Assembly (NCBI GenBank): GCA_965215195.1
Contig: CBDCDC010000002.1
Location: 160,001-224,000 of the forward strand
DNA: 64,000 nt
DNA from: Candidatus Latescibacterota bacterium
Lineage (GTDB): Bacteria > Latescibacterota > UBA2968 > UBA8231
Direction: 5' to 3'
Part shown: piece after piece, positions 26,721 through 44,340 of the stretch
Numbering within the stretch: position 1 is the stretch's first letter
Layout of the letters: every line of letters begins with the position of its first letter
The notes under the pieces: model-generated
Seen by the model: the letters and a program-made list of their open reading frames with translations, nothing else
Database searches by the model: none
What the model was told of the DNA's origin: nothing
Program-made: the position numbers and the translations under genes

Positions 26721-27617
26721 ATGACCAAGACAAAGTTGAAACTTGAAACCGTGACGCCGATGTTTCTCCATGGTGAGAATCGTACAGAACTCGAACTTCG
26801 GCCACCGCCTTTCAAAGCCCTATTTCGCTATTGGTGGCGAACCGTGCAGGATTGCGATGAAAACTCGCTTAGGGAGGCCGAGGCAAAGCAGGATTGCGAT
26901 GAAAACTCGCTTAGGGAGGCCGAGGCAAAGTTGTTTGGTAGTACAAAAGGTAAAGCACCATTCTCAATTCGTATTTCAGGAACAACGAATCTGGCAAATA
27001 CCAAATGTAAACCGTTGCCACATCGGACTGATAATCGTGGTTTTAAGAGAGATGCTTACAAAGGGGGACAATCATTTGACCTGCATCTAATTACAAATAC
27101 AAAGAACAGTTCAGATGCTTCGACTTATGAACAGATTGCGAAACTCGGTTTTTTGCTCGGCGGCGTCGGCAATCGCTCGCGGCGCGGGTTCGGGTCAATT
27201 CGTGAAAAAGGTTGGAATTTCCCAAGCGTTTGCGATCTAAAAAGGGAGATTTTGGATACACTCAATGCTGTCGCATGTGACACGCGGTTTTGGATAAACG
27301 GCCAAATCATTGAATCGACACTCACCAACTTTCCCGGTTACCCTGTCATTCGATGTATCCATTTTGGTAAACCAACAAGTAACGTTGATAGTCTATTGAA
27401 GAAAATTGGTCAGGCGACTCATGATCACAACAGTGATGCTTTGGGTTATGCAAAAGGACAAAAACGGCTGGCTTCGCCAATTCATGTTCGTATTCAGAAA
27501 GTCGGCAATGAATATGTCCCGGTTGTCACGCGACTTCATCTTGTCACGCGACTTCATCACTCAACTTATATCAGACACAGCAAGCAGAGGGACTTTATTT
27601 GTGCCATCATCACGTAG
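26721..27617 (+). CDS. cmr1: Type III-B RAMP Cmr1
   Basis: LETVTPMFLHG, ELRPPPFKALFRYWWR, LGGVGNRSRRGFG, RLASP; two internal tandem duplications. Confidence 0.92.
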   Translation: MTKTKLKLETVTPMFLHGENRTELELRPPPFKALFRYWWRTVQDCDENSLREAEAKQDCDENSLREAEAKLFGSTKGKAPFSIRISGTTNLANTKCKPLPHRTDNRGFKRDAYKGGQSFDLHLITNTKNSSDASTYEQIAKLGFLLGGVGNRSRRGFGSIREKGWNFPSVCDLKREILDTLNAVACDTRFWINGQIIESTLTNFPGYPVIRCIHFGKPTSNVDSLLKKIGQATHDHNSDALGYAKGQKRLASPIHVRIQKVGNEYVPVVTRLHLVTRLHHSTYIRHSKQRDFICAIIT

Positions 27618-27626: not shown

Positions 27627-29471
27627 ATGAGTGACAATCAACCAAAACGCCTCATGCTCATGTTCACAATTGGCCCCGTGCAATCTTTCATTGAAGCGGC
27701 TCGGAAGACGGAGGATTTGTGGATGGGAAGTTACATTCTGTCTTATCTTGTGGCTCATGCAATGGACAAAATTCGAGGCAGCGATGTTGAGCTAATCTAT
27801 CCCGCCATTGGAAGCCAATCGCCCTTTGATTTTTGGAAGCAACAAGATTTCACAACCCCGTCTTTTCCAAATCTTTTTTTGGCAATTGGCAACGACATTG
27901 AGGTTTCTCAACTGGCTCAACGCGCAAAAGACGCTGAAAACAGTGTAAAATCTGAGTTCAAGCGCATGGCAGAATGCGTGATTGATAAGGCATTTGGAAG
28001 GGACAAGTGGCATAGGTCTTATGTTGAGAAAGTAGTTGAGCGACAAATCTCGGATTTTTTTGATATCTATTGGGTGATTACCGAAGAAACAGGTCAAAAT
28101 TATGGGGATTGGTACGCTCATACCGCAGGCAGTCTCGCGGCGATCAAAAACTGTCGGGCATTTGCACCAATCAGTGAGTTTGGACGAAAATGTTCGCTTG
28201 ATGGAACACGCGAGATACTCCATTTAGATCAAAAAGCCTCTGTCCAAGACGCAATGAAATGGTGGCAAGATTTTGCTAAACGAGAACCAAAGTATTGCCG
28301 ACAAAAAGAGGCACTCTGTGCTGTCTCATTAACTAAGCGGATGGGCAGGCATTTTCTTGAGACTCAATCGAGATTCAAGGACAACTTTTCACCTGACAAA
28401 CTTCTGACCTTTCCATCCACATCGGAGGTGGCGACAGCGGACTTCAAGGAACAATTCCAAAGCAACATCCAAGCCTGGTGTGTTTACGGACAGTTCTTTG
28501 ACGAAGTCAGAAAATTGAAGGCATCAATTCCAATTATTCGGCCATTGCCAAAAATCAAGAATTTGCAGAAGAACATCGATGGCGAATGGCTGTACGAAGA
28601 GACTTGGAGCGAGCCCTATCTCAGACGTTACTACAACATTGATTCAGAAAAAGAGAAGAATCAAATTGAAAATTGTAAGCGATTGCGTGGGAAACTTGTC
28701 CGATTGCTCGGCGAACCGGGCCGATACTATGCCGCCATTGCGCTTGATGCTGATAATATGGGCGAAAAAAATAGAGAGGCTAAAAACAAGGAAGAACATG
28801 AAGGACGCAGCAAGCAACTGATTCGATACACAAAAGATGCGCGTCAGATCATTGAACAAGAGTATCTCGGGAAGTTGACGTATGCGGGCGGCGACGACCT
28901 CTTAGCACTCGCAAATCTCAAAGAGCTCTTACCCATGTTGAAAGGATTGCGAAAAAAATTTCCCGGTTTCACGACCGCTTCAGCCGGTGTGTGCATCGCT
29001 CACAATAAAACTCCGCTCGGCAGTGTGCTTCAGCAGGCACGTCGGATGGAGCGAGCGGCAAAAGAAGGTGGGCGAGATGCGCTTGGCATTGCATTGTTCA
29101 AACACTCTGGCAATATCAGTCAAGCAGTAACAAAGTGGAAATATGAAGGTTTGGATGTGATCGACATCAGCGAGAAATTGGTCAAGCTGTTGCGCGATGA
29201 CGAAATTTCCAAGCGTTTCCTGTACGACTTCCGTGAAACATTTGCCAAACTAGTTGAAGACAGAAAGGACTTTAGAGCACTTGGTCGGCCCCTTATTCAA
29301 ACCGAGTTTAGGCGAATTATGGAACGGGCGCATTCAACCAAAGGAACACAGCCTCCACAAAGCGAAGAAACTATTGATTCACTGACTCAACTTATCCACT
29401 ACATCAGCCCCTTCTCTCACTTTCTCGGGTATTTGGAAGTTGTCAACTTCATTGTGAGGAATCAAAAATGA
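27627..29471 (+). CDS. cas10: Cas10/Cmr2, lacking the HD nuclease domain, cyclase palm intact
   Basis: Begins at FTIGPVQSFIEAARKTEDLWMGSYILSYL; FPSTSEVA; ALDADNMG; YAGGDDLL. Confidence 0.96.
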   Translation: MSDNQPKRLMLMFTIGPVQSFIEAARKTEDLWMGSYILSYLVAHAMDKIRGSDVELIYPAIGSQSPFDFWKQQDFTTPSFPNLFLAIGNDIEVSQLAQRAKDAENSVKSEFKRMAECVIDKAFGRDKWHRSYVEKVVERQISDFFDIYWVITEETGQNYGDWYAHTAGSLAAIKNCRAFAPISEFGRKCSLDGTREILHLDQKASVQDAMKWWQDFAKREPKYCRQKEALCAVSLTKRMGRHFLETQSRFKDNFSPDKLLTFPSTSEVATADFKEQFQSNIQAWCVYGQFFDEVRKLKASIPIIRPLPKIKNLQKNIDGEWLYEETWSEPYLRRYYNIDSEKEKNQIENCKRLRGKLVRLLGEPGRYYAAIALDADNMGEKNREAKNKEEHEGRSKQLIRYTKDARQIIEQEYLGKLTYAGGDDLLALANLKELLPMLKGLRKKFPGFTTASAGVCIAHNKTPLGSVLQQARRMERAAKEGGRDALGIALFKHSGNISQAVTKWKYEGLDVIDISEKLVKLLRDDEISKRFLYDFRETFAKLVEDRKDFRALGRPLIQTEFRRIMERAHSTKGTQPPQSEETIDSLTQLIHYISPFSHFLGYLEVVNFIVRNQK

Positions 29472-30625
29472 AACTTTTTCTTTCACCCAATGATACCTTC
29501 TTTTTTCGCGATGGGAGGCCGTTTACAAAAGGCGAACAGACGGAAGGGCATTCAATTTTTCCACCGCTTCCCTCGACGGTCCTCGGTGCGTTAAGGACTG
29601 CATACATCGCCGAGTTTGGCAACTTGCCGCTTTTCTATTCAGGAGGGATGCAAAAAACGATTGGCACGCCGGCATCACTATGCAATGCGATTCGACTGCG
29701 CGGTGTTTTTTTGGCGAACAATCGAGGCGATCAGTTGGAGATGTTTTTCCCTGTGCCGCGTGACCTGATATACAAGAAGGAGGATAAAAAGCAGAATGAC
29801 AATATCGCACTCCATTTGCTGACACCAGAGGCCAAAAATTTCACATCGAATGGGACAATCAACAACGTACTTGCATGGTCGGCTCCCGATTCCATTGATT
29901 TGGATGCAGATGGCTTGTTACGCATGGGAGCTATCGGACGATACCTGCAAGGAAACGATAGGAACCTGCTACTTACAGATAGGGCAACACTTGTTGAGCG
30001 AGAATCCAAGGTCGGCATCGCCCGAAGTCGAGATACTTTGTCATCCGAGGAGCACATGTTGTATCGTATTGACATGTCCAGATTCAAAAACCGCGATGGA
30101 AATTACGGTTTCGTCGTGGACTACGAATGCTCCAAAAATTTACCACAAAAAGGACTTTTGAAATTAGGTGGTGAAGGCAAAAGCTTTGTCTATCGGGGCA
30201 TCGACCTTAACGTTGAGTCGCTGTCTAGCCATCTTGGGGCGGTCAAAAGCACTATGCAATCAACAGGCAAGTTCAAGCTATATTTCGCAACACCGACCAT
30301 ATTTCAGAAAGGATGGTTGCCTTCATGGTTGGATAGGTTGGACGGAGGTACGCCTTCGGGCGAATATCCAATGGCGAGTAGTTCGCCAATTTCGCTCAAA
30401 TTGATCACTGCTGAGGTTGGTAAACCTGTTACCATTGGTGGATGGGATATGGCAAAAGGCGAGGCAAAACCGACCTATCGTGCTGTGCCCGCTGGCAGTG
30501 TTTACTATTTTGAATTGATGAATAAAAACCGAATTGATGATTTAATCGCCGCTTTCCACTATCAAAACATCAGCGACGAGCGTTCCGAAGAAGGGTTCGG
30601 ACTTGCCCTTCTCGGCGTCGCATAG
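29468..30625 (+). CDS. cmr3: Type III-B Cmr3
   Basis: DTFFFRDGRPF, FPPLPSTVLGALRT, LGGEGK, IGGWD, AVPAGSVYYF, EGFG. Confidence 0.95.
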   Translation: MKLFLSPNDTFFFRDGRPFTKGEQTEGHSIFPPLPSTVLGALRTAYIAEFGNLPLFYSGGMQKTIGTPASLCNAIRLRGVFLANNRGDQLEMFFPVPRDLIYKKEDKKQNDNIALHLLTPEAKNFTSNGTINNVLAWSAPDSIDLDADGLLRMGAIGRYLQGNDRNLLLTDRATLVERESKVGIARSRDTLSSEEHMLYRIDMSRFKNRDGNYGFVVDYECSKNLPQKGLLKLGGEGKSFVYRGIDLNVESLSSHLGAVKSTMQSTGKFKLYFATPTIFQKGWLPSWLDRLDGGTPSGEYPMASSSPISLKLITAEVGKPVTIGGWDMAKGEAKPTYRAVPAGSVYYFELMNKNRIDDLIAAFHYQNISDERSEEGFGLALLGVA

Positions 30626-30636: not shown

Positions 30637-31920
30637 ATGAAGACACTTGTAACGCCCGTTGGCACATCGCTGTTTACGAACTATCTCGATAAGAACTCGA
30701 ATGATGAGACCTCAAAATCTTATTATGACACAATCAAAAAACGCCCCGCTTCGGAGTGGGGCGATTATGAGAGTGAAATTAACGATCTGAAGAGGGTTAG
30801 CCTTAGCTTTATCGGCATGTCTGGAGTACAGGCTTCAGCCGAACTTCAGAGCATCGCTAAAATTCGATGCGAACTCAACGAGGAACTCAAAGTTCGCCTG
30901 CTTGCCTCGGGTACGATTGCGTCGCGATTGGCGGCGGAGATTTTGGCTGACAATACTTTGGCTGACAATACAGTGACCCCGGTTTTGGGAAGTGGTGTAC
31001 GTGTCGAATTTGATTCAGAAAAAGATGTAATCAAAGGTTTACAGGTTGAAGATCCCAAAGCCTTTTCAAATGAAGGCATGACCAACCTGATTCAAAAGAT
31101 TGACCAAGAGGCTTCTGGATACTGGCCGAAACTTGCTATCAATATCACTGGAGGGTTCAAAGCTACCTTGCCATATCTGACGATTTTGGCACAACTCAAG
31201 CACATTCCGCTTTACTACAACTTTGAGGACACTGACTCACTCATCAAAATTCCGCAAGCACCATTGGTTATTGATTGGGGCTTGATTGAACGGTATTCCG
31301 ACATCCTTATGCAAATTGATAAGGGTGTAGAAGGCAATTGGCCGAAATTTAAAAAAAGACACTACCAAGCTGTTCAAAATTTGGAGGCATTCATTGAAGT
31401 TGATGACAAGGATGCACTTCTGTCACCGATTGGCACAATTTTCTGGGAGGAGTATCAAAATTACTTCGTCGTCGAATTGCCAGGTGGAAGTTATTACGGC
31501 TATAATTCCACTGACCGTCGGTCGATTGATGGAGCCATTGAAGAGCTTTATAGACGGTTACGCGCTGTTCTGTCAGACACTTGCCTGCAAGACTGCGATG
31601 GAAATCTTATACCTGATAAGTGTTACGAAAAAATTCGTAATTTGGGACACAATGATGACTTGAATCACGGTAGGCAGATTCCCAATCCGACGGAAAGTCA
31701 GGACCGGGAAATTTTCATTTTCAAATCAACAAATGATGTTCATATACGATTGCTGTATACCTTCAAGGTTAATAGTAAAAAAATTACTCGGCTCAAGATA
31801 TTCGACCTCCTTTGTCGAGATTTCGATCATGAGAGTTATATTGACGATTGGAAAACAAAGTTCGGTGAAGAAAGATTTCCTGAAATCAACTTTGTCACAC
31901 GTACACTTGAAATTCCTTAG
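30637..31920 (+). CDS. CARF (APE2256-like) protein with a putative C-terminal RelE-like nuclease, Cami1-type effector
   Basis: VGTSLFTNY, SAELQS, INITGGFKATLPYL and YYNFE are APE2256-type CARF motifs. The C-terminal IFIFKS..HIRLLY..DHESY suggests a RelE-like fold (inferred). Confidence 0.8.
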   Translation: MKTLVTPVGTSLFTNYLDKNSNDETSKSYYDTIKKRPASEWGDYESEINDLKRVSLSFIGMSGVQASAELQSIAKIRCELNEELKVRLLASGTIASRLAAEILADNTLADNTVTPVLGSGVRVEFDSEKDVIKGLQVEDPKAFSNEGMTNLIQKIDQEASGYWPKLAINITGGFKATLPYLTILAQLKHIPLYYNFEDTDSLIKIPQAPLVIDWGLIERYSDILMQIDKGVEGNWPKFKKRHYQAVQNLEAFIEVDDKDALLSPIGTIFWEEYQNYFVVELPGGSYYGYNSTDRRSIDGAIEELYRRLRAVLSDTCLQDCDGNLIPDKCYEKIRNLGHNDDLNHGRQIPNPTESQDREIFIFKSTNDVHIRLLYTFKVNSKKITRLKIFDLLCRDFDHESYIDDWKTKFGEERFPEINFVTRTLEIP

Positions 31921-31935
31921 AAAGGAGAAACCCAA

Positions 31936-32928
31936 ATGTTCAAACAAGCTAAACCCTTCTTCCTCATCGTCGAAACCCCACTCCACGCCGGAAGCGGTAG
32001 TGACCTCGGCATTGTTGACCTGCCCATCCAGCGCGAGACGCACACGGATTACCCGAAAATCGAAGCGTCCGGGTTGAAGGGGAGTATCCGTGAAATTTTC
32101 GATGCTCAAAACAAGGATGCTCAAGCTATCAAGCTTGCATTCAAGCTTGCATTCGGCCCTGAGCAAGGCGATCTGCACGCGGGTGCCTTGGGGTTTACCG
32201 ATGCACGTCTCTTGCTTTTCCCGGTCAAGTCGGTCAAAGGTGTGTTTGCATGGGTGACGTGCCCAGCAGTTTTGGAGCGTTTCAAATATGACCTCTCCAT
32301 TTGCCAACCGAGCATTACGTTTGTTGACGATCTCCCTAGCCGCAATACGGTGCCGACCGAGAGCGGACTCATTGTGAAGGACGAGGGAAATGCCAAGAAA
32401 ATCGTGTTGGAAGAATACACGTTCACTGTCAATTCCGACAAAGAATGTGATGCTGTCGCAAAGTGGATTGCCAACAGAGTCCTTCCGCCAGATCTATGCT
32501 ATAACTATTGGCATGAGAAGGTGAAACGAATCCTCGTCGTGTTGAGCGATGATGATTTTCGCGATTTCGTGACGCTCTCAACGGAGGTCATCGCCCGAAC
32601 CAAAATCGACAGTGAAACCGGCACCGTTCAATCGGGTGCGCTGTGGTACGAGGAATACTTACCTACGGATTCGATTCTTTACTCGCTTGCATTGACGACA
32701 CCGCTGTTCTTAAAAGTTGATGGGAATGATGATGCACAAAAGCAAAAAGATGAGAAGGCAAAAAAAGGCATCTTCTATGCTGGCCAAGGGGTGGACAAAA
32801 ACCACGAGGAAGCCAAGAAGGTGATGGAATTCTTTGCGGACGGATTGCCGAATATCATCCAAATCGGCGGCAATGCAACCATTGGCAAGGGATTGGTTCG
32901 GACACACGTTTATCAACATGGGGGGTAA
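31936..32928 (+). CDS. cmr4: Type III-B Cmr4
   Basis: TPLHAGSG, VDLPIQRE (catalytic Asp), SGLKGSIR, DARLLLFPV, LWYEEYLP, QIGGNATIGKG. Confidence 0.97.
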   Translation: MFKQAKPFFLIVETPLHAGSGSDLGIVDLPIQRETHTDYPKIEASGLKGSIREIFDAQNKDAQAIKLAFKLAFGPEQGDLHAGALGFTDARLLLFPVKSVKGVFAWVTCPAVLERFKYDLSICQPSITFVDDLPSRNTVPTESGLIVKDEGNAKKIVLEEYTFTVNSDKECDAVAKWIANRVLPPDLCYNYWHEKVKRILVVLSDDDFRDFVTLSTEVIARTKIDSETGTVQSGALWYEEYLPTDSILYSLALTTPLFLKVDGNDDAQKQKDEKAKKGIFYAGQGVDKNHEEAKKVMEFFADGLPNIIQIGGNATIGKGLVRTHVYQHGG

Positions 32929-32929
32929 A

Positions 32930-33340
32930 ATGATGCCACAAAATCAGACAACACTTAAGGGAATTGAACAGGGGCGGGCCAAGTATGCTTTCTGCGTTGT
33001 CAATGACGTCAGCCAGATCGAATCTGATGACTTAAAAAAGAAGTATAAAACTGCTGCGAAGAAGATTCCTGTTCTAATAAAAACCAACGGGCTTGGGCAA
33101 TCCCTAGCATTCATTAAGAAAAGGAATGATGGTTACGACAAGCTGTACGAGCAGATTGGGAACTGGATCCAAACTGAGGATGCCAAGCAATTGGTTCCGT
33201 CGGGCGAACTTGTCGAAGAGGTTATCCAACTTCAATCGCCTGTCTATCGGCAAGTCACTATCGAAACGCTCGCGCTACTCAATTGGATTCGCCGATTTGT
33301 GGATGGACTCATGAAAGATGTGGAGGCAGACAATGACTAA
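32930..33340 (+). CDS. cmr5: Type III-B small subunit Cmr5
   Basis: [35 protein letters not shown]. Confidence 0.93.
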
Positions 33341-34400
33341 CTACCATCCATCCGATACGGAGCAACTGATTCGCTCATGTAACCACCGGATTGACAACTT
33401 TGCTCTACGCTACCGACATTTTTTGCGGATTGATGCCCCAAGAGGCAATGACCTGAAATACAAAATCAACTTTCAGTGTTCCGGTCAGAAGCTTGAGAAA
33501 TCGTCTCAAGAATGTGTCAAGCATCTGAGAGAACGGCAACGCCAGCAACTCCAGCAGTTTGCTATGCGCGGCATTGAACTTTACTGCGTTGATGCAACGG
33601 TTGATTGGCGGCTGATTGTTGGTCTCGGTAGCGAGCATATTCAGGAGACAAACATGACGCTCCATCACATCTACGGCATTCCGTACATTCCCGGAAGTGC
33701 TGTGAAGGGCGTGTTGCGCCACTGGTGGTTGCATGAGGATTTTGACAATGACGAAAACAAAGCCCTGAAAAATAAAAGTTTTCTCGCTCTCTTTGGCAGC
33801 CAAAAACAGCGCGGGAAAGTGCAATTCATTGACGCCTATCCTGATGAAGTCCGTTTTGCAACGGATATCATGAATCCGCACTATCCCGACTATTACAGTG
33901 GCAGCAAACCACCAACAGATTCTCAAAATCCAGTGCCTATCAATTTTTTGACCGTCGAGCAGACCACCTTTCGATTCGCTTTCTTGGCAAAGGATCAAGA
34001 ACTTCTCGATAAACTCAAGGCGCGATTTGAAGATGCCTTAGAAATGAAAGGCATTGGAGCGAAAACAGCGGTTGGTTATGGGTATTTCCGCGATTTTAAA
34101 GACCAGACTGCCAACATAACAGACCGTGAAGCCGATATGCCCGCTCGGCCTTTGAATGCGACCAAAAGCACTATATCAATCACAGCAGACCGCGAAGCCC
34201 GTGAAGTCGGAACTGTAAAATGGTTCAACGCTGCCAGAGGATTCGGTTTTATTGAGCAAGAAGGTGGCGAAGACGTTTTTGTCCATTATTCCGCGATTCA
34301 AGCCAAGGGCTATAAATCTTTGGCAGAGGGTGACTGTGTTGAATTTGACATTACCGAGGGGCCTAAGGGACTCCAAGCTTCAAATGTCGTGAAGCGATAA
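33333..34400 (+). CDS. cmr6: Cmr6 fused to a C-terminal cold-shock domain
   Basis: [27 protein letters not shown] and [11 protein letters not shown], then [34 protein letters not shown] (RNP1/RNP2). Confidence 0.95.
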
Positions 34401-34587: not shown

Positions 34588-36471
34588 ATGCAAGAAGTAT
34601 TGCGCCAAGCGCGACAGCACATTGACGCGAGTGAATTCGACCGGGCCGAGAGCCTGTGTGCCGATGTCTTGGTGGCCGATCCGGTCTGTGTGCCGGCACA
34701 CCAACTGATGGCGCGGGTGTGGCTGGGACGGAAGCAACCCGACAAAGTGCGCGACCGCCTCGGGTATCGCGACCAGTTGCCCCACGACGAACACTATGTC
34801 GAGTGGGGCCTGATCGCCGAGGAGATGGAAGACTTGGAGACCGCCGGCCAGCTCTATGAAGGGCTGCTGCAGCGGGAGCCGCAAAACGCCGTGGCCCTGT
34901 ACCGGCTGGGCTTGCTGTGCCTCGAACGCGGCGAGCGGGACCGGGCCGTGGGCCTGTTGCAGCGCACCTTGCGGGCGAGTCCAGAGTACGCTCCGGCCGC
35001 GTTTGAGCTGGCCCAGTGCTATGCCGAAGACGAGTTGTGGGGGCTGGCGGCCGATGCGTACGAGCGGGGCTTGGAGCGCGACCCGTCCCATGAGGAGGCC
35101 CGCACCGCCCTGCAAGTGGTGGAGGCGCGGATGCGGGAACTGGCCGAGTTGCCCAGCAGCGAGGTGCCGGCCGGGGAGGGCCCCACGCGGCGGATGCGGG
35201 TATTGTTCGCTGGGCGGGAAAATGTCCACGCCCGGCAGTGGATAGACGAAAATGGCCGGGTTGGGTACAGTCCGGTCCATGAGCCGCTCGCCGAGCATCT
35301 GTTAAGCCTGCATTTGCAAGGGACCGCGACCTTGGGCGTGTACCCGGTGCGGGCCGACCAGACGGTGCTGTTTGGGGCCCTCGATATTGATGTGCGCAAA
35401 AACGCCCTCACCGCGGGGCAGCCGCTCGCCGACCGACTGCGGGAAACCGTGCAGGCCGATGCCCGGCGGCTCGCCCGGCAGTTCGATGCGTTGCACCTGC
35501 CGGTCTATGTGGAGGAGAGCGGGTACAAGGGCGTACATCTGTGGATCTTTCTTGCGGAGCCGGTGCCGGCTGCGGAGGTGAAGCGCTTTTTGGAGGCGGT
35601 CGTCCAGCGGGTCGGCCCCCCTGCGCCCGAGCTCCAGTGGGAGGTATTCCCCAAGCAAGAGCAGGTCGCCGAGGACCAGTTGGGCAATCTGATCAAGTTG
35701 CCGTTGGGCATTCATCTCAAGACTGGGCGGCGGTGTTTGTTCACGGACTTGGAAGGGCAGGAGTACAGCGATCAGGAAGGGTTCCTCCAGCGCATTCAGC
35801 AGGTTGAGCGCAAGGATTTCGAGCGGGCCGTGTCTCGCTTGGTGGCCCGGCCCGAGCAAGGCGGCGCGGCCGGGTCGGCTCAAGCCCTGCGCGAGGCTTT
35901 TCCCGAATACGAGGCCCTGTTCAAGGGCTGCCCGGTCTTGGTCGCCCTTATGGAAAAGGCCGTGGTCACCCATCACCTCACCCACGACGAACGCTTGGTC
36001 CTCAAGTGCGTTTTGGCGCACTTAGGCGACAGGGGGCGTCGGCTGATCCACAGTATTGTCGGGCACTGCCTCGATTACTCTGAGGCGATCACCCAGCAGC
36101 AAATTGAGCGCACCCCGCCCTATCCGGTCAGTTGTCCCAAAATTCGTCAGCGCCTCCCGGAGGTCACTTCAACGGTCAACTGCGCGTGTGTGTTCGAGTT
36201 GCCCGAAGGGGGGTATCCTTCGCCGCTGTTGCATCTCGAGCCAGACTTTACCAAGGGTCGGTCTCACAATGCCGATCGGCACGGGCCGATGGTGGACAAG
36301 TACGTGAATTTGCGGCGGGATTATCAGCGGCTGAGCCGCGAGTTGGCCCACCTCGAAGACGATCTGCGCTACGCGCTTGACTCGAGCGGCCAAGACGAGT
36401 TGCGGGCCGGCGGGTGGATTCTGCGCCGCGATGGGGAGGGTCGCTTAAAGGTGGAGATCGACTTGGGGTGA
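34588..36471 (+). CDS. CRISPR-associated primase-polymerase (CAPP): TPR + AEP primase-polymerase + Cys-rich C-terminal domain
   Basis: TPR repeats; AEP motifs LDID (DxD), ESGYKGVHLW (SxH), EVFPKQ and GNLIKLPLG; PriL-like Cys pattern GCPV..HCLDY..SCPKI..NCAC; stop overlaps the cas1 start. Confidence 0.92.
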   Translation: MQEVLRQARQHIDASEFDRAESLCADVLVADPVCVPAHQLMARVWLGRKQPDKVRDRLGYRDQLPHDEHYVEWGLIAEEMEDLETAGQLYEGLLQREPQNAVALYRLGLLCLERGERDRAVGLLQRTLRASPEYAPAAFELAQCYAEDELWGLAADAYERGLERDPSHEEARTALQVVEARMRELAELPSSEVPAGEGPTRRMRVLFAGRENVHARQWIDENGRVGYSPVHEPLAEHLLSLHLQGTATLGVYPVRADQTVLFGALDIDVRKNALTAGQPLADRLRETVQADARRLARQFDALHLPVYVEESGYKGVHLWIFLAEPVPAAEVKRFLEAVVQRVGPPAPELQWEVFPKQEQVAEDQLGNLIKLPLGIHLKTGRRCLFTDLEGQEYSDQEGFLQRIQQVERKDFERAVSRLVARPEQGGAAGSAQALREAFPEYEALFKGCPVLVALMEKAVVTHHLTHDERLVLKCVLAHLGDRGRRLIHSIVGHCLDYSEAITQQQIERTPPYPVSCPKIRQRLPEVTSTVNCACVFELPEGGYPSPLLHLEPDFTKGRSHNADRHGPMVDKYVNLRRDYQRLSRELAHLEDDLRYALDSSGQDELRAGGWILRRDGEGRLKVEIDLG

Positions 36472-37466
36472 TTCTCTATGTGACGGATCAGGGCGCGGGG
36501 GTCTATTGCCGCGGCGAGCGTTTGCAGGTGCGGCGGCGCAAGGAAGTATTGGCCGAGGTGCATCTGTACGATCTGGAACAGGTGGTGCTCATGGGCCGGA
36601 TCGCGCTTTCGGCCGCGGCCATGGGCACGTTGCTCGAGCGGGGCGTGGATACAGTCTTGCTGAGCGTGCATGGTCGATACCGGGGCCGGCTGGTCGGACC
36701 CGAACGGCGCAATGTGCTGCTGCGGCAACAGCAGTTCAAGCGCTACGAAGACGAGCCGTTTCGGCTGGGGGTGGGGCGGGCCGTGGTTGAGGGCAAGCTA
36801 CGCAATATGCGGACCCTGCTCATGCGCTTGGCCCGGCGGCGCAGGGTGGATGTGGGGGCGGTGGCCCACTTGCTGCGTCGGTCGATTCAGCAGGTCGGGC
36901 AGGCGACTAACGCGGAGTCGCTACGCGGTTTGGAGGGGGCCGGTAGCGCGGCTTATTTTGGGGTGCTTGGGGACTTTTTTCCCGAGGAACTCCCGTTCAA
37001 GGGACGCAACCGACGGCCGCCCAAGGATCCGGCCAATGCGCTGCTCAGCTTTGGGTATGCTCTGTTAGGCAACAGTGTGGAGGGCGCGGTCTATTTGGCC
37101 GGGCTCGATCCGTACTTGGGCTTTCTGCATGTGGTGGACTATGGGCGTCCTTCGCTCTCGCTGGATTTGATGGAGGAATTTCGGCCGGTGTTGGTTGATG
37201 CGCTGGTCTTGGATTTGGTCAACCACCATCGGGTGCAGAGCGAGGATTTTGAAGCGCGGGACGGAGGGGTATTTTTGCAGGGGGCGGGCCGCAAGCGGCT
37301 GATTGAGGCGTACCAACGCCGTCTCGAAGACCGGGTGGCCTACCCAGTAGGGGCCGAGCGAGTGGAACGGATTTCTTATCGGCGTTGCCTCGAATATCAG
37401 GTGCGCCGATTGGCCCGGGTGATCTTGGGCGAGGAAGACCACTATCGGGCCTTTCTGGTGCGTTGA
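36468..37466 (+). CDS. cas1: CRISPR-associated endonuclease Cas1 (no RT or Cas4 fusion)
   Basis: LYVTDQG, RGLEG..AAYF, RNRRPPKDPANALLSFGY, GLDPYLGFLH, LDLMEEFRP. Confidence 0.97.
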   Translation: MILYVTDQGAGVYCRGERLQVRRRKEVLAEVHLYDLEQVVLMGRIALSAAAMGTLLERGVDTVLLSVHGRYRGRLVGPERRNVLLRQQQFKRYEDEPFRLGVGRAVVEGKLRNMRTLLMRLARRRRVDVGAVAHLLRRSIQQVGQATNAESLRGLEGAGSAAYFGVLGDFFPEELPFKGRNRRPPKDPANALLSFGYALLGNSVEGAVYLAGLDPYLGFLHVVDYGRPSLSLDLMEEFRPVLVDALVLDLVNHHRVQSEDFEARDGGVFLQGAGRKRLIEAYQRRLEDRVAYPVGAERVERISYRRCLEYQVRRLARVILGEEDHYRAFLVR

Positions 37467-37467
37467 G

Positions 37468-37743
37468 ATGTTTGTGACGGTTTGCTTTGATATCAGCTCG
37501 GACCGAACCCGTCGGCAGGCGACTCGGGTGCTGGAGGCTTATGGGACGCGGGTGCAGAAGAGTGTGTTCGAATGTCGCATTGGTGAGCGGCAGTTTGTCG
37601 AGTTGCGGCAACGCATGAGTCAGATCAATCTGGGGGCAGGTGATCTGGTGCGCTACTATACGCTGTGCCGGGCTTGTCAGGCCAAAGTCGAATTTACCGG
37701 CGGTTTGCCGCCGCAGGAGGAAAAAGGGCATATCGTCGTTTGA
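37468..37743 (+). CDS. cas2: CRISPR-associated endonuclease Cas2
   Basis: VCFDISSDR, YGTRVQKSVFEC, DLVRYY. Confidence 0.97.
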   Translation: MFVTVCFDISSDRTRRQATRVLEAYGTRVQKSVFECRIGERQFVELRQRMSQINLGAGDLVRYYTLCRACQAKVEFTGGLPPQEEKGHIVV

Positions 37744-38004
37744 AAGGGGGAATTTGCGACTCAGTTTAAGAAAGGGTTGTCAAAATAGCACAATGGGGTT
37801 ATATTTTTTTGTGCCGTAAGGAATTGGGTGCGTTACTTGATCCGATTCTGGGTCGCAAATGGGTAACGGCCTGTCCTAGAATTAGTTGGCTCAGATGCTC
37901 TTGCCACAGTCAGAATGGTTTTGATAGGCGGGTGCCTGTCAAAATGGCCTGAGTCGCATAAGGGGGCTAGACGGACTGTGGCCCAATAAGTTAGAAAGGA
38001 GGCA
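37744..38004 (+). promoter_or_regulatory. CRISPR leader
   Basis: AT-richer non-coding 261 bp between cas2 and the first repeat. Confidence 0.8.
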
Positions 38005-40354
38005 ATCAGAACACTGGACCCGATTTGTAGGGGATTGAAACGAGCCGATATCCGGTGTGGCGGCAAATTCAATACATAAATCAGAACACTGGACCCGATT
38101 TGTAGGGGATTGAAACATGCCGTTTTCGACCTCGCCGCCGGTCCACGTGTACGTATCAGAACACTGGACCCGATTTGTAGGGGATTGAAACACACCCAAG
38201 AGGTGTCCACCCGCACCAGGACCCGAGAGATCAGAACACTGGACCCGATTTGTAGGGGATTGAAACTTCTTGTTCCGCATCCTGCCGCGCAGCTTCCTGG
38301 ATATCAGAACACTGGACCCGATTTGTAGGGGATTGAAACTTTGCCGCGACCCGCTCCATGCACTCGTTAAACTCTTATCAGAACACTGGACCCGATTTGT
38401 AGGGGATTGAAACGTAATTAAACGACACGAGGTTGTTGTGAAACACACACATCAGAACACTGGACCCGATTTGTAGGGGATTGAAACCGAGAAAGTCATC
38501 TTCGGGTGGCGAGTACAGTGGCGAAATCAGAACACTGGACCCGATTTGTAGGGGATTGAAACATCTGTAGGCTGACGTCTTCGATCGTGATGGTATCGGG
38601 GTATCAGAACACTGGACCCGATTTGTAGGGGATTGAAACACGGCACCGACCGCTTCCTCGACCTCCGTAACCACCTATCAGAACACTGGACCCGATTTGT
38701 AGGGGATTGAAACTAATGGTCTCGGTCTCAGTCTCGGCCGAAGTCTCGGTATCAGAACACTGGACCCGATTTGTAGGGGATTGAAACTTCTTGCCCACAC
38801 GAATGTGGGGGTTTTGTGCCTCCGATCAGAACACTGGACCCGATTTGTAGGGGATTGAAACCACTTGGGCGGCCCCATGTCCGCAGCCGAGTTGCTCATA
38901 TCAGAACACTGGACCCGATTTGTAGGGGATTGAAACGAAAAGAAGAGGGCGAACGCCTGGGTCTTGTACCCTCCCAATCAGAACACTGGACCCGATTTGT
39001 AGGGGATTGAAACCACGACTTGTCGAGGGGGAAGTCTTCGGGGAGTCTCTCATCAGAACACTGGACCCGATTTGTAGGGGATTGAAACTGGATGGAGTTC
39101 TGCTGGAGAGCGTACTGGAAACCGAAATCAGAACACTGGACCCGATTTGTAGGGGATTGAAACGGGTCAGCGCCCGCCCGATAGGGTTTCTCGAAGAATC
39201 AGAACACTGGACCCGATTTGTAGGGGATTGAAACTGCCCGAGAACTCGCCGGGACCAATCAGAGACGCACATCAGAACACTGGACCCGATTTGTAGGGGA
39301 TTGAAACTTTTTTTCATACGGGGGTTCCTTCGCGTTGGGCGCGGATCAGAACACTGGACCCGATTTGTAGGGGATTGAAACTCAACCCACCTAGCCCGAA
39401 TCCCCCGAATCCCAAAAAAATCAGAACACTGGACCCGATTTGTAGGGGATTGAAACTTTAGAGAGTTGGGTTAGGTGGTTTGCGGCTTCCTCTTATCAGA
39501 ACACTGGACCCGATTTGTAGGGGATTGAAACTTGATGTCATTAACAGTGATCTGGAACATTTTGGCCTATCAGAACACTGGACCCGATTTGTAGGGGATT
39601 GAAACCCGATCGCCGCCCACCTCGTCCGGCGGATTTACCATCTCATCAGAACACTGGACCCGATTTGTAGGGGATTGAAACTTATGTGGGAATGGGGGTG
39701 GAAAAAAAACGACGAGATCAGAACACTGGACCCGATTTGTAGGGGATTGAAACAATGACTGCCTGACGCGACGGAGCGTCTTGATCAGGTATCAGAACAC
39801 TGGACCCGATTTGTAGGGGATTGAAACTTCATCACGATGCTTAAGTGCTCGGGGGCAATTTTCCCATCAGAACACTGGACCCGATTTGTAGGGGATTGAA
39901 ACTCGTCGAATTCGGGACTGAGCCCATTCTCGGTTTGAACGATCAGAACACTGGACCCGATTTGTAGGGGATTGAAACGCTCCTGCAGGGCAATCAGCGC
40001 CCTCTTGGTTCTTGCCATCAGAACACTGGACCCGATTTGTAGGGGATTGAAACACCTGCACGGTGGTCCCGAGTGCGAGCTCGTTTACAAGGATCAGAAC
40101 ACTGGACCCGATTTGTAGGGGATTGAAACACCTCCGAGACCACTTCGTCGGACTCGAGGTTGATATATCAGAACACTGGACCCGATTTGTAGGGGATTGA
40201 AACGCTTAGTGGGGCGACCTAGAAGAGCCGTTCCTCGAGCGATCAGAACACTGGACCCGATTTGTAGGGGATTGAAACCGATCTGGAACATTTGAGTCTC
40301 CTCAATTGTGGCCGCAGATCAGAACACTGGACCCGATTTGTAGGGGATTGAAAC
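38005..40354 (+). CRISPR. CRISPR array: 32 copies of the 37-bp repeat ATCAGAACACTGGACCCGATTTGTAGGGGATTGAAAC and 31 spacers of about 34-40 bp
   Basis: Repeats counted by hand from 38005 to 40318; no variants seen. The 3' ATTGAAAC handle and the leader position give + orientation. Confidence 0.99.
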
Positions 40355-40380
40355 CCCGGAAGGCAGAAAGGAGGAGGCAA

Positions 40381-40482
40381 ATGAAAAAGGTTGTCTGCGC
40401 TGGACCGCCTAGGTCCGGCAGAAGCTATTTGTGCGAGGGATTGAAGCAGGCTATTATAAAAATTACCAAAGACGACCCGTAA
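40381..40482 (+). pseudogene. Truncated N-terminus of a P-loop protein resembling the ATPase-Csx3/Crn3 fusion
   Basis: Strong SD AAGGAGGAGG, then MKKVVCAGPPRSGRSYLCEGLKQAIIKITKDDP*; Walker A-like GPPRSG(R)S. Confidence 0.6.
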
Positions 40483-40529
40483 AAGATTGCTGGCGTTGTG
40501 ACTCGCCAAATACAATCGAGGTTTGCGTA

Positions 40530-42230
40530 GTGCCAATCGCTGAAACAGTATTAAACGGCATCCAAGACAGAGGCCGACGAGCACTGCCCATTGAGAGAAT
40601 TTATCGACACCTCTACAACCCCGACCTATTCCTACGTGCTTATGGGCGCATCTACCGAAAAACAGGGGCGACCACACAAGGCATCACAGAAGAAACCACA
40701 GATGGCATGTCAATGAAGAAAATCAATACCCTCCTAGAGAAATTCCGCTGTGAGCGTTACCAATGGACTCCGGTAAGGCGGATATATATTCCCAAGAAAA
40801 ACGGCGGGCGGCGTCCGCTCGGCATCCCCGTTTGGTCCGATAAACTGGTACAAGAAGTCATGCGATCCATACTGGAAGCCTACTATGAACCCCAGTTTAG
40901 CGATCTGTCCCACGGCTTCCGAGCTAACCGAGGCTGTCACTCTGCACTAAGAGAAATTGCAAAATGGAAAGACATAGACTGGTTTATCGAAGGCGACATC
41001 AAAGAATGTTTTGACAGCATAGACCACGATCTACTACTGTCCATATTGAAAGAGAAAGTCCACGATGATCGATTCATTGTCTTACTCGGCCAGCTTCTCA
41101 AGGTCGGATATGTAGAGTATGGGAGCTACAAATCCACCCTGATCGGCACCCCACAAGGAGGGCCTGTAAGCCCAATCTTTGCCAATGTGTATCTCGACAA
41201 GCTGGATAGGTTTGTCGAAAACACACTCATGCCTCGCTATACAAAAGGTAATTGGAAAACCGCGAGGAACTTGCAAAGAATAATGCGGCAAAGGCCGCTA
41301 TCTAATGCCAAAAATCATATCTTTAGACGACTGCGCTATATCCGATACGCCGACGACTTTCTGATTGGCTTTACCGGGCTAGAGGCAGAAGTAAAAGAAG
41401 TCAAGAGGTGCCTCAAAGGATTTCTCCAAGAAAAGCTGAAATTGGAACTATCAGAGGACAAAACCTTGCTCACGTACGCCCGCACCGAGAAAGCACAATT
41501 CCTCGGATACGAAATCAAAAGAATGACTGAAAATACCAAACACAAAAAAGGCCGAAAGCCGATCAACAACGCGCTGAGTCTCAGCGTTCCAATAAGATTC
41601 ATAAAAGAGCGATGTGAACTCTATATAAAATACGGGCGAATAATGCCTCGTGCCGAACTGATCAACGACAGCGACGCCGACATCACGAGTTTCTTTCAGA
41701 GCCGATATGCCGGTTATGTGCAATACTACATGCTTGCCCACAATGTCCACGCCTTAAACGAAGTGCGATGGGTTATGGAGAAGTCCTTGCTCAAGACGCT
41801 TGCCAAAAAGCATAAAACGAGCGTCAATCAGTTTGAAAAACAGTACAAGACGACCATCCAAACACCCCACGGTCCGCAAAAGTGCTTGGAGATGCAGGTG
41901 GTAAATCGAGAAGGAGAACCACAGATCGCACGCTTTGGCGGCATTCCTCTCAGACGACGACAAGGTAAGACCATTGAGGATCAAGCCCAAAATGATGCTC
42001 CCACGAGCAAAGGGACAGAACTCATCCAACGCCTGCTGGCAAACCTATGCGAATGCTGCGGCTCAGCGGGCAGAGTCGAAGTTCACCACATCCGAAAACT
42101 CGCCGACATCAAAAAGGGGAGGTCGCCAAAACCCAAATGGACGCAAGAAATGATCGCGCACCAGCGAAAAACCTTGATTGTGTGCAAAAAGTGTCATCGC
42201 GCCATCCATTCGGACCAAATCAGCCACTGA
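40530..42230 (+). CDS. Group II intron-type reverse transcriptase/maturase with HNH endonuclease; no flanking intron RNA recognisable
   Basis: RPLGIP..DKLVQE, SHGFR, EGDIKECFDSIDH, GTPQGG, YADD and FLGY; maturase X region; CECCG..EVHH..CKKCHRAIH; likely GTG start 40530 after GAGG. Confidence 0.95.
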   Translation: MPIAETVLNGIQDRGRRALPIERIYRHLYNPDLFLRAYGRIYRKTGATTQGITEETTDGMSMKKINTLLEKFRCERYQWTPVRRIYIPKKNGGRRPLGIPVWSDKLVQEVMRSILEAYYEPQFSDLSHGFRANRGCHSALREIAKWKDIDWFIEGDIKECFDSIDHDLLLSILKEKVHDDRFIVLLGQLLKVGYVEYGSYKSTLIGTPQGGPVSPIFANVYLDKLDRFVENTLMPRYTKGNWKTARNLQRIMRQRPLSNAKNHIFRRLRYIRYADDFLIGFTGLEAEVKEVKRCLKGFLQEKLKLELSEDKTLLTYARTEKAQFLGYEIKRMTENTKHKKGRKPINNALSLSVPIRFIKERCELYIKYGRIMPRAELINDSDADITSFFQSRYAGYVQYYMLAHNVHALNEVRWVMEKSLLKTLAKKHKTSVNQFEKQYKTTIQTPHGPQKCLEMQVVNREGEPQIARFGGIPLRRRQGKTIEDQAQNDAPTSKGTELIQRLLANLCECCGSAGRVEVHHIRKLADIKKGRSPKPKWTQEMIAHQRKTLIVCKKCHRAIHSDQISH

Positions 42231-42282
42231 TGTTAGGCTCTGGCGGTTTGGCCTCTTTATCAAAATCTCAAAGGAGCAACTC

Positions 42283-43665
42283 ATGGAAACAGCCACACAC
42301 CAGCCAGCGAATGAGCCGCACACGATCTTGTTATGCACCGTCGGCGGTGCTCATCAGCCGATTCTTGAGGCAATTGACTCAACGTCACCTAGCTATGTCT
42401 GCTTCTTCTGCACGGACAAAGATCCCGTGACCCAAAAGCCAGGTACTATCGGTCATGTGACCGGTAGTGGCTATGTCATCAAGGCTGACTACAACGAAAC
42501 TAAGCCTACGTTGCCGAATATCCCCACCCAAGCGCGTCTTAATAACGGCGAGTTTGAAACGCAGATAGTCCCGGCGGACGACCTTGATGGGGCTTATTTA
42601 GTCATGCGTAACGCCATCATCAACTTGGCTGCGCGATTTTCGGGCCCCCGATTTATCGCCGACTATACGGGGGGCACCAAGACGATGACGGCGGCACTTG
42701 TATGCGCTGCCTTACAGGGGAGGGATGATGTCGAGCTTCAACTTGTTACGGGTACCCGTTCCACTCCCACCATCGTGGACGATGGAACCGAACAGGCGAT
42801 GACAGCGAGCGTGGCTCGTCTGCGCCTTGAACGGGCGATGGCACCCTATCTTGGGGCTTGGTCGCGGTATGCGTATTACGAAGCCGCGGAAGGGCTGAGA
42901 AGCATCCGAATTGTCAGCAACGACCGCGATCGGCAGGGGTTCCTCTTTGTAAGCTCACTAAGCCGAGCCCTAGCTCTTTGGGATAACTTCAATCATGCCG
43001 ACGCATTAAAGTTGATGCGGCACTATGGAGGGCAAGTCGCTCAATGCTATCCGAAAATGTTGCCTTGGTTGGACTTACTCGCTAAGGAGAAGGGGAACGA
43101 ACCCGCACTGCTGTTTGACCTCTGGTTAAATGCCCAGCGGTGTGCAGCCCAAGGCCGGTTCGACGATGCGATTGCGCGATGGTACCGCCTGCTGGAGTGG
43201 ACAGCTCAATGGCAACTGCAAACGAAGCTCAAGGCCAATACCGCGGATTTTGCATCTGATTTGCTGCCATCGGGTGTTGACGCGGCTCCAAGTAGCGATA
43301 AAAAAATCAAGCTCGGACTTTGGCAGGCATGGCAAGTCGTGAAGCACCATGAACGCCTGTCGGGACCCGCTCAAGAATTCATCAAGAACCACGGGGGGAA
43401 GGTCTTCGATTTACTTAAGGTACGCAACAATTCGATACTGGCTCACGGTTTTCGTCCAGTGAGTGACTCGGACTGGCAGCAGGTGTATTCGTGGACGCAG
43501 GACAAATTCCTGCCTGCCCGTTCTGCGTCAGTTAGCCGCCAAAGCAAACATAAAAAAAGAGCCGGAGCAACTCCCGACCACACCTCCAGAATTCTTCACC
43601 TGAACCGCGTCCGACAGTTACTGGCTCGCTTGATCCGTTTGTCTCAGTACACGACAGCAACCTAA
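42283..43665 (+). CDS. CARF-HEPN effector (TIGR02710-like, Csm6/Csx1-related); last ~50 codons are out of frame
   Basis: CTVGGAHQP, ADYTGGTKTMTAAL, GRFDDAIARWYRLLE, HEPN RNNSILAHGF; 4-bp duplication at 43509-43516. Confidence 0.9.
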   Translation: METATHQPANEPHTILLCTVGGAHQPILEAIDSTSPSYVCFFCTDKDPVTQKPGTIGHVTGSGYVIKADYNETKPTLPNIPTQARLNNGEFETQIVPADDLDGAYLVMRNAIINLAARFSGPRFIADYTGGTKTMTAALVCAALQGRDDVELQLVTGTRSTPTIVDDGTEQAMTASVARLRLERAMAPYLGAWSRYAYYEAAEGLRSIRIVSNDRDRQGFLFVSSLSRALALWDNFNHADALKLMRHYGGQVAQCYPKMLPWLDLLAKEKGNEPALLFDLWLNAQRCAAQGRFDDAIARWYRLLEWTAQWQLQTKLKANTADFASDLLPSGVDAAPSSDKKIKLGLWQAWQVVKHHERLSGPAQEFIKNHGGKVFDLLKVRNNSILAHGFRPVSDSDWQQVYSWTQDKFLPARSASVSRQSKHKKRAGATPDHTSRILHLNRVRQLLARLIRLSQYTTAT

Positions 43666-43829
43666 GTTGTGGCACGACGCTGATGGGCTTGGTTGTGCAA
43701 CGGCTGGTTGAAGAAGCCCGAAAGCTGGATCGCCCGGTGCGACGTTTTGCTCTCATTGATCGCCGTTCCCAAGACGAGCAGGACAGCGATCCGTTTGTGC
43801 AGGGCGATTGCCACTGGCTTGACAACTGA
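43659..43829 (+). pseudogene. 3' remnant of a CARF-like gene (copy 2)
   Basis: NLSCGTTLMGLVVQRLVEEARKLDRPVRRFALIDRRSQDEQDSDPFVQGDCHWLDN*; NLSCGTT resembles the CARF N-x-T-G-G-T motif. Confidence 0.6.
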
Positions 43830-44340
43830 ATGAGACTGAGGCTATTGATGCCTGCCACTATTCTTTGCTCATCTGCCAGACCCTCCAACGCCTCACGAGC
43901 AACCCCCAGTACAAGCTCAAGCGATACCACATCACGACCCAGTAACACCTGCATTTTTTGCACTTTTGCACCAGTTCGGCCCCTCGCCCCGCTCCTCGCC
44001 CGGCAGTGCCTCTTGCGTAAGTAACGCATTTACAATGCCTTAACGGCCCCTCAACCAAGTCTGGCATTGGATTTGCTATCTATACGTAGGTCGATGGTCC
44101 CTGCCGTGCAGCCGGGAGAGTTTCACGGCCTAATAGGGCAAGCAATTTGGGCACTTGATGCTTTGCAGCTCCCAATTGAAACGGTGAGAGTGCAAATTAT
44201 GCACTTTGAGCACCCCAAGGCCGGTGCTTCTAACTCGCGCAATTTGAGTGCCTTGCAGGCCGTCGGCTCGAAATTGTTGCAACGGAGGGCAAAAATTTGC
44301 GCCTGCTAACCCCATTTCCAAGGAGGTTTCGCGATCCAAG

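Follow-up and report, generated by a model that had tools for sequence, protein, structure and literature searches.

A reverse transcriptase (RT) gene directly behind a CRISPR array in a Candidatus Latescibacterota bacterium is predicted to encode a domesticated, ribozyme-less LtrA-type protein, conserved as an accessory of one lineage of CRISPR-associated primase-polymerase (CAPP), Cas1 and Cas2. The window analyzed is a 64,000-nt stretch of assembly GCA_965215195.1 (contig CBDCDC010000002.1, positions 160,001–224,000), and coordinates below are those of the window unless stated otherwise. The gene is read as a domesticated stand-alone CRISPR RT and not as a chance intron because it has no ribozyme, is present in single copy, holds a conserved position, is under purifying selection and forms its own clade. 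It would serve as the fourth gene of an adaptation module with CAPP, Cas1 and Cas2, with a role in turning RNA into spacers by means of two polymerases; this reading is favored with modest confidence.

The open reading frame (ORF) list and Pfam/NCBIfam scans give a single train of plus-strand genes, which runs from a type III-B Cmr module through CAPP, cas1, cas2, leader, array and RT to a CARF-HEPN gene. The adaptation part consists of the following features.

34588..36471, plus strand: CAPP type A1, with TPR, AEP primase-polymerase and C-terminal domains (NF040561)
36468..37466, plus strand: cas1, without RT fusion (PF01867, Cas_Cas1, E 1.6e-95)
37468..37743, plus strand: cas2 (PF09827, E 3.6e-19)
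37744..38004, plus strand: leader, 261 nt, with one promoter-like site at 37777–37805
38005..40354, plus strand: CRISPR array, 32 identical 37-nt repeats ending in ATTGAAAC and 31 spacers of 34–40 nt
40530..42230, plus strand (open frame 40431–42230): RT, a group II intron-type protein with RT, X/maturase and HNH domains (Pfam/NCBIfam)

The original prediction, made from the sequence alone, had placed a TPR-AEP CAPP coupled to cas1-cas2 upstream of the array and an RT downstream, all on the plus strand and with an unfused Cas1. The domain scans bear this out and its coordinates are correct; the Cmr genes with cas6 (25394–34400) and the CARF-HEPN gene (42284–43665) were left out there.

The CAPP protein matches the NCBIfam model NF040561, "CRISPR-associated primase-polymerase type A1", over residues 66–591 (E 1e-107, 360.9 bits, cut-off 200). 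TPR families cover residues 60–180 and AEP-TOTE residues 204–412 (E 4.9e-44); for the AEP domain, an alignment with 7nqd and 7nqf, the solved structures of the Marinitoga CAPP domain, gives E 5e-35. Its motifs are kept, namely DxD (LDIDV, aligned to YDIDI of the Marinitoga piezophila protein MpCAPP), GxH (GVHLWIF) and FPKQ. The primase, polymerase and strand-displacement activities of CAPP type A1 are putative for the window protein. The gene is in an operon with cas1 and cas2 beside an array, as in CAPP type A1 loci. Translation of cas1 probably begins at GTG 36468, where its start codon and the CAPP stop share the letters GTGA, and the ORF list starts the frame at 36414; the CAPP-cas1 overlap in orthologs is 4 nt. 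Cas1 is 332–350 aa long and carries the Cas_Cas1 domain only, so that it is not an RT-Cas1 fusion.

The promoter-like site in the leader (TTGTCA-17-TATATT) agrees with the consensus at 10 of 12 positions and is a consensus match only. Array orientation follows from the leader position and from the 8-nt handle rule, which we take to apply here. No match to the array was found among 50,697 phage records by blastn. A contig from another study (run X6, matching window positions 36400–43700 at ~99% identity) joins cas1-cas2-leader to RT-CARF with an array remnant between them, and may represent a short-array strain or an assembly collapse of the repeats.

The RT gene likely starts at GTG 40530, preceded by a Shine-Dalgarno-like AAGGGA/AAGGAG conserved in six loci. 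The protein is ~566 aa from this start (599 aa for the open frame) and has the catalytic YADD at residue 273. Its domains are RVT_1 (E 2.6e-30), Intron_maturas2 (E 8e-11) and an AI2M-like HNH (E 4e-14). TIGR04416 is matched with 269.7 bits, under the cut-off of 300. Among solved structures the protein comes closest to LtrA, encoded by the Ll.LtrB group II intron of Lactococcus lactis (E 1.7e-99), and matches to solved CRISPR RTs are much weaker (Cas6-RT-Cas1, E 5e-13; RT of CaCART-CAPP, E 3e-10). This difference points to an origin independent of the solved CRISPR RTs. Between array and RT the plus strand has no promoter-like or terminator-like site, which is compatible with read-through from the array transcript and does not show it; such expression would fit the layout.

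The gene order was examined by tblastn, repeat scan and whole-genome searches. A CAPP query returned nine loci in Candidatus Latescibacterota metagenome-assembled genomes (MAGs) at 82–89% identity. The order CAPP-cas1-cas2-array-RT is found in six genomes of two GTDB families: G000 (the window), G021 (locus L013), G031 (L016), G111 (L018), G108 (L021, with an array of three repeats only) and G141, where the array breaks the locus into contigs L020 and L032. These five elements are the only constant part of the six loci. The effectors vary, with a Csm set in L013, Cmr in the window and other cas10-like genes in L016, L018 and L021. The gene 3′ of the RT is CARF-HEPN in three loci (window, L021, L032), a 589-aa protein in two (L016, L018) and an AAA protein in one.

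No group II intron RNA was detected in the window with Rfam at gathering threshold, none at 37700–44600 even at E ≤10, and no intron RNA in L013, L016, L018, L021 or L022. An RT query returned only ordinary introns from other phyla, at 44–54% identity and including four copies in one Scytonema genome; in five of five of these relatives that were scanned, RF00029 (domain V/VI) lies directly behind the ORF (45–65 bits). It also lies behind the ORF in the introns L024, L035 and L036 (68 bits) of the same phylum. Domains I–IV upstream of an intron ORF take up roughly 500 nt or more. The gap from last repeat to RT start is 22 nt in L021, 69 in L018, 175 in the window and 276, 422 and 771 in the remaining loci, with degenerate repeats within two of the longer gaps; the RT stop is followed by the next gene after ~20–105 nt (53 nt in the window). 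When the non-coding flanks of real introns from the phylum were searched by blastn, only the ORF start matched, and the positive control gave both flanks. Alignment of the six stretches between array and RT left only ~25 nt conserved, with the Shine-Dalgarno-like motif and GTG, and no DIVa-like element was found in them. The RT is single copy in the 6.13-Mb host genome, whereas the true introns in G108 and Scytonema are multi-copy. Of the hallmarks of a mobile group II intron, the locus has an intron-type protein that carries RT and X domains, a DNA-binding/endonuclease (D/En) domain being optional, and domains V/VI, domains I–IV and multiple copies were not found. The lack of a ribozyme match, the small room and the single copy argue that no mobile intron surrounds the RT. 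An RT within an intron enclosing the array, or a split ribozyme, was considered and rejected, there being no room and no ribozyme match. The gene has the features of a stand-alone CRISPR-associated RT (CART): it encodes a group II-like RT with an intact active site, lacks intron RNA and accompanies a cas1-cas2 module.

The RT is under purifying selection. Pairwise ratios of nonsynonymous to synonymous divergence (dN/dS) are 0.11–0.19 for the RT (15 pairs, dS up to ~2), 0.09–0.12 for CAPP and 0.08–0.11 for Cas1. A large protein collection held 19 clusters at 64–99% identity to the RT, one of which is the window protein, and the next hits were at ≤58%. A quick maximum-likelihood tree of 64 rows was built from the six context-verified RTs, 18 clusters, three proteins of introns with a verified ribozyme and 37 of 99 hits of lower identity (12 from the top of the list and 25 drawn at random), with the broken ORFs L005, L006 and L008 left out. 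A branch of length 0.38 and SH-aLRT 100 divides the 24 high-identity RTs from the 40 ordinary intron proteins. YADD, RT motifs 1–7 and the Cys and His residues of the HNH are invariant among the 24, and compared with intron proteins the whole clade lacks ~20 residues between RT motifs 4 and 5. A metagenome scan with the clade alignment yielded seven loci, all at 27–42% identity, and no further clade members.

The RT follows one CAPP lineage. Among 168 genomes of the phylum, the RT type (≥67% identity) occurs in six and CAPP in 19 (18 above cut-off). All six RT-positive genomes have CAPP and none of the 149 CAPP-negative genomes has the RT, counts that give no clean statistic as the genomes are related. 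In a tree of 20 CAPP loci, the six RT-positive loci fall in one subclade of ten (stem 0.8, SH-aLRT 100), and the RT is absent from all ten loci of two other CAPP groups. A search of genomes for joint occurrence of CAPP, cas1 and RT, proposed with the original prediction, has in this way found them as conserved, selected neighbors in six genomes, with the RT in CAPP-positive genomes only.

Beyond the phylum, the best 80 of 220 CAPP loci were surveyed, and Cas1 was found in 72 of them. RT-TPR-AEP fusions of 943–1020 aa occur in nine of the 80, from ANME and Methanosarcinales archaea, Anaerolineales, KSB1 and others, and a separate search found many more. A separate upstream RT is present in two: L105, probably a split fusion, and L112 of a Myxococcota MAG (6926–12767), in which a 490-aa RT with RVT_1 only, having neither a maturase nor an HNH domain, precedes a 500-aa ORF, CAPP-TPR and cas1. 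The rest comprise one true intron, four Latescibacterota RT loci and 64 loci with no RT, many on short contigs. The fused RTs are only 27–32% identical to the window RT and match the fingers-palm part alone (hidden Markov model positions ~22–357); a full-length LtrA-like RT partner of CAPP was found in Latescibacterota only, within the best 80 of 220 loci. RTs have thus been united with this CAPP family more than once, and the recurrence of the fusions argues for a functional link. The original prediction had taken the pairing as undescribed. On this it was mistaken: fusions and adjacent RTs are published (PMC8211822, PMC10415136, PMC8632793).

Three of the 31 window spacers match the host chromosome perfectly over their full length (blastn).

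38488..38525, plus strand: spacer 7, 38/38 to the host 16S rRNA gene (C2:2564168–2564205, minus strand), same sense as the rRNA
38862..38899, plus strand: spacer 12, 100% to the host transketolase-N gene (PF00456, E 2.2e-53), same sense
39164..39197, plus strand: spacer 16, 100% to the host gene for a 648-aa protein with FlgD_ig and CHU_C domains, same sense

The target of spacer 7 is matched by Rfam SSU_rRNA with 1595.6 bits on the minus strand. Contigs from sequencing runs cover the array thinly, and those that match the three spacers derive from the host genes, carrying 16S and transketolase flanks. Since the spacers have the same sense as the host RNA, their CRISPR RNAs (crRNAs) cannot pair with it. 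In RT-positive G141, seven of the 12 leader-proximal spacers (1–6 and 8) perfectly match its own chromosomal genes, five clearly in the same sense and two ambiguous, and none of nine trailer spacers does; the newest spacers look like a recent burst of self-sampling. The G141 targets (spacers at L020 13463–14020, = G141:C83) include HupE/UreJ, SDR, a PLP enzyme and DUF3500, and one spacer corresponds to a palindromic multi-copy element. Self spacers are same-sense in all eight clear cases from RT-positive genomes, and in 11 of 11 when two from the RT-less G143 and a 92% match of G021 are added. The uniform orientation is best explained by an active type III effector, guided by RNA, that has purged self-targeting crRNAs, regardless of spacer source. 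The arrays record host genes, 16S rRNA included, solely in the harmless orientation, and would offer a natural read-out of self-sampling followed by autoimmune selection. Under uniform DNA sampling, the probability of at least one 16S match among ten self spacers is 0.25%, and rRNA is the commonest spacer source in the Vibrio vulnificus RT-Cas1 system (PMC6821258). The self spacers, that of 16S rRNA among them, are hints of RNA uptake and not proof. By eye no flanking motif was seen at the self protospacers; no formal test was made.

A two-polymerase pathway from RNA to spacer is plausible and, we infer, the most likely function. The RT probably derives from the protein of a mobile LtrA-like group II intron that lost ribozyme and mobility, the RT, thumb/maturase and HNH parts having been kept by the host. 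Expressed by read-through from the array transcript, it would make first-strand cDNA, perhaps with no need for a primer, from the RNA of an invader or, accidentally, of the host. CAPP, a DNA-dependent enzyme, would prime and fill the second strand, or fill integration gaps, and Cas1-Cas2 would insert the duplex at the leader. As an accessory, the RT would widen the range of substrates. The division of labor between an RT acting on RNA and a CAPP acting on DNA fits published biochemistry: CAPPs act as DNA-dependent primase-polymerases and perform poorly when the template is RNA, and D177 and D179 are named as catalytic residues (PMC8211822).

Several results weigh against this pathway. The RT is absent from the other four of the ten loci in its own CAPP subclade. 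One of them is in G143, of the same genus and with the same repeat type, where a whole-genome search found no RT. Its arrays, unusually long, measure at least 18.6 kb (C1:129041–147679) and ~8.4 kb (592799–601235) and have related repeats; the RT is therefore not required for CAPP-Cas1-Cas2 adaptation and is an accessory to it. The original prediction named as grounds for its rejection orthologous loci without the RT and acquisition independent of it. This is in part what was found, with four of ten subclade loci lacking the RT and one of them having arrays of at least 18 kb. Nor are self-matching spacers confined to RT-positive arrays; the counts in the other genomes are as follows.

G021, RT-positive: perfect self matches 0/54; one at 92% identity
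G031, RT-positive: perfect self matches 0/30
G111, RT-positive: perfect self matches 0/17
G143, RT-negative: perfect self matches 2/111 tested, both same-sense
G029, RT-negative: perfect self matches 0/24; one at 86% identity

Pooled, self spacers number 10/153 in RT-positive and 2/135 in RT-negative genomes (Fisher p 0.04), a comparison among related genomes in which two carry the whole signal. As same-sense self spacers occur in RT-less G143 too, orientation says nothing on spacer source. Divergence between the window and L013 is unequal, with dS 1.55 for the RT and 0.61 and 0.73 for CAPP and Cas1; the disagreement implies that parts of the module have been exchanged between lineages. The retained HNH has no counterpart among the CRISPR RTs in the literature read: the available portions of PMC5541045, PMC5513706 and PMC10415136 make no mention of an endonuclease or maturase domain in such an enzyme.

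The RT may instead be a domesticated defense or repair enzyme under shared regulation with the type III locus, one that, for instance, synthesizes cDNA upon infection or takes part in DNA repair like RTs of the group II-like (G2L) type, perhaps coupled to CARF-HEPN and with no part in spacer acquisition. Long arrays without an RT would be expected here, and so would its seat at the trailer end beside CARF-HEPN (three loci) or the 589-aa protein (two loci) and not beside cas1; the retained HNH, not mentioned in the accessible descriptions of CARTs, and the presence of G2L RTs in defense islands (review, PMC8632793) point the same way. Against these stand the variable downstream genes, CAPP-cas1-cas2-array being the sole constant neighbors, the strict confinement of the RT to one CAPP subclade and the recurrent fusion of RTs to the same CAPP family, and we consider the explanation unlikely. 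Somewhat more doubtful is an RT that takes part in adaptation on DNA or independently of CAPP, as a primer-independent polymerase and nuclease making or trimming prespacers from single-stranded DNA, with no RNA recorded. CARTs and LtrA do prime and extend on DNA as well as RNA (PMC10415136), self spacers arise without the RT, and the HNH could trim DNA. However, a motif-intact CAPP already provides DNA-templated priming and synthesis, which would leave a second DNA-only polymerase redundant, and the 16S rRNA spacer is improbable under uniform DNA sampling. That the gene is a decaying, functionless group II intron remnant behind the array is highly improbable and close to refuted by dN/dS. Related mobile introns do occur in the phylum, one of them inside a CRISPR array, and the RT is missing from four related loci. 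Set against this, the ORF is intact in six genomes of two families and in 18 further clade clusters, the low dN/dS persists at dS up to ~2, every catalytic motif is invariant, and both ribozyme halves are cleanly gone with operon-like spacing to the neighbors kept.

A further variant, which we regard as distinctly improbable, is that the RT retains the retrohoming toolkit minus the ribozyme and that intron-style retrohoming has been re-aimed at the CRISPR leader. Cas1-Cas2 would join or position an RNA protospacer, a 3′-OH made by Cas1 or the HNH would prime target-primed reverse transcription in the array, and CAPP would fill the opposite strand. An intron found in a CRISPR array of G108 fits a lineage in which intron machinery meets CRISPR integration. 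In L036 (= G108:C1:5764158–5767880), an array close to a second CAPP locus, one without an RT, carries a complete group II intron, ribozyme included, which takes up one spacer slot exactly (340–2774). The slot measures 2435 nt between flanking repeats, versus 36–41 nt for the other 11 spacers, and leaves 3 and 5 nt from the intron ends to the repeats. The intron is antisense to the array, has a second genomic copy 99.75% identical with different flanks, and encodes a protein with 53% identity to the window RT. Either retrotransposition with deletion or an integrase-type capture would account for it.

The remaining genes of the train are the type III-B effector module and the genes behind the RT.

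25394..26344, plus strand: cas6 (Pfam CRISPR_Cas6, E 8.8e-20)
26721..27617, plus strand: RAMP protein, cmr1-like (Pfam RAMPs, E 1.6e-12; cmr1 name from position only)
27627..29471, plus strand: cas10/cmr2 (TIGR02577, E 4.8e-51), with Cmr2_N and Cas10 palm2 domains
29468..30625, plus strand: cmr3 (PF09700, E 1.3e-60; TIGR01888)
30637..31920, plus strand: CARF-type, ring-nuclease-like Cas_APE2256 protein within the cmr operon (PF09651, E 2.1e-20; NF040951 match weak)
31936..32928, plus strand: cmr4 (TIGR02580, E 7.4e-70)
32834..33340, plus strand: cmr5 (PF09701, E 8e-32, residues 45–158); true start probably downstream of 32834
33318..34400, plus strand: cmr6 (TIGR01898, E 5.2e-49, residues 96–257) with a C-terminal cold-shock domain (CSD, PF00313, E 2.7e-27, residues 298–359)
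42284..43665, plus strand: CARF-HEPN ancillary nuclease of the TIGR02710/Csm6-HEPN type (TIGR02710, E 2e-45; PF09670, E 3.2e-20)
43656..43823, plus strand: C-terminal relic of the 589-aa protein encoded behind the RT in L016 and L018 (tblastn, 80% identity, last 56 residues, E 5.7e-23)

The locus has the gene set of a type III-B (Cmr) system, with equivalog matches for cmr2/cas10, cmr3, cmr4, cmr5 and cmr6 and a RAMP match only for cmr1. The cas10/cmr2 product has a GGDD motif at residue 421, and no HD domain was seen in it in the Pfam/NCBIfam scans. The cas6 genes directly next to CAPP in L016 and L021 show 73–74% identity to that of the window. No gene separates cas6 from CAPP in L016, L018 and L021, and the Cmr module stands between them in the window. 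G+C content is 44–50% at 26000–34400, the Cmr module, versus 60–65% around it; the module looks like a recently inserted effector cassette. A cold-shock (OB) domain is C-terminal on the window Cmr6 and N-terminal on the RAMP protein of L021 (17099–18703), so that backbone subunits of type III systems in this group have twice acquired an RNA-binding domain by fusion. The CARF-HEPN gene starts with an ATG and an AAGGAG motif 53 nt past the RT stop, and the relic behind it suggests that an older downstream effector set was replaced by this gene. In L016 (17902–19671) and L018 (16526–18292), the RT is followed by the intact 588–589-aa protein, an uncharacterized type III component that Pfam does not recognize, and then by a short cas10-like gene. 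Elsewhere in the window are a 670-aa MurG glycosyltransferase with C-terminal HEAT repeats (46882–48894) and, at 16898–17087 and 26846–26930, short tandem repeats with 15-nt periods and a perfect 42-nt duplication, the latter immediately upstream of the cmr1-like gene.

Published CARTs are classed as stand-alone, Cas1-fused, Cas6-Cas1-fused and CAPP-fused (Zabrady et al. 2023, PMC10415136). A CAPP-RT type and CART-CAPP fusions have been described (Zabrady et al. 2021/2023, PMC8211822, PMC10415136), and a review places RTs "adjacent or fused" to an AEP domain in clade 12 (PMC8632793). A CRISPR RT that works with an AEP primase-polymerase is therefore a known kind. As in CART-CAPP fusions such as that of Caloramator australicus (CCJ33120), a group II-like RT and an AEP primase-polymerase serve one type III Cas1-Cas2 module in the window. 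Unlike in the fusions, they are separate genes on opposite sides of the array, and the RT is full-length with X and HNH, whereas the fused RTs match the fingers-palm part only. The primase-polymerase domain was inactive in the two fusions tested, which was hypothesized to be common (PMC10415136); the AEP motifs of the window protein are intact. MpCAPP of M. piezophila shares the TPR-AEP-C-terminal domain order, translational coupling to cas1-cas2 and a type III-B context (PMC8211822). Its operon is described with Argonaute, and the available portions of that paper mention no RT, whereas the window has one behind the array.

Several independent recruitments of intron RTs to CRISPR have been argued (Toro et al. 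2018, PMC6013744). In the Methanosarcina clade 1 RT, derived from a class F intron, an intron likewise settled in a CRISPR locus and lost its RNA part, and the RT stands unfused beside adaptation genes (PMC6013744; Silas et al. 2017, PMC5513706); the window RT differs in host phylum, in its LtrA-like lineage with an endonuclease domain and in having CAPP as a partner. Compared with LtrA (PDB 5g2x, 599 aa), it has a similar length and the same RT-X-D/En domain order, and it differs in having no ribozyme, in being single-copy and in a ~20-residue deletion that lies between motifs 4 and 5. For the LtrA RT domain, priming on RNA has been shown (PMC10415136). The RT-Cas1 systems of Marinomonas mediterranea MMB-1 and V. 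vulnificus have the same type III context, and host-derived spacers, rRNA included, are shared with the V. vulnificus library (PMC6821258); the window RT is, by contrast, not fused to Cas1. Fresh RT-Cas1 libraries are antisense-biased (PMC6821258), whereas the window self spacers are all sense, a difference that counter-selection in a natural host would leave.

No literature combining Latescibacter*, reverse transcriptase and CRISPR was found. What appears new, in the literature searched and with the published CRISPR-RT clades 1–15 outside the comparison, is a recent, independent capture that keeps its HNH and acts in trans with a motif-intact CAPP. Known CRISPR RTs are old, trimmed derivatives of intron RTs, mostly fused to Cas1 or to an inactive primase domain, and the window RT would be a younger capture, an intermediate stage from selfish intron to immune gene. 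The locus potentially provides a natural two-polymerase system in which the contributions of RT, CAPP and HNH are genetically separable, with sister strains with and without the RT open to comparison.

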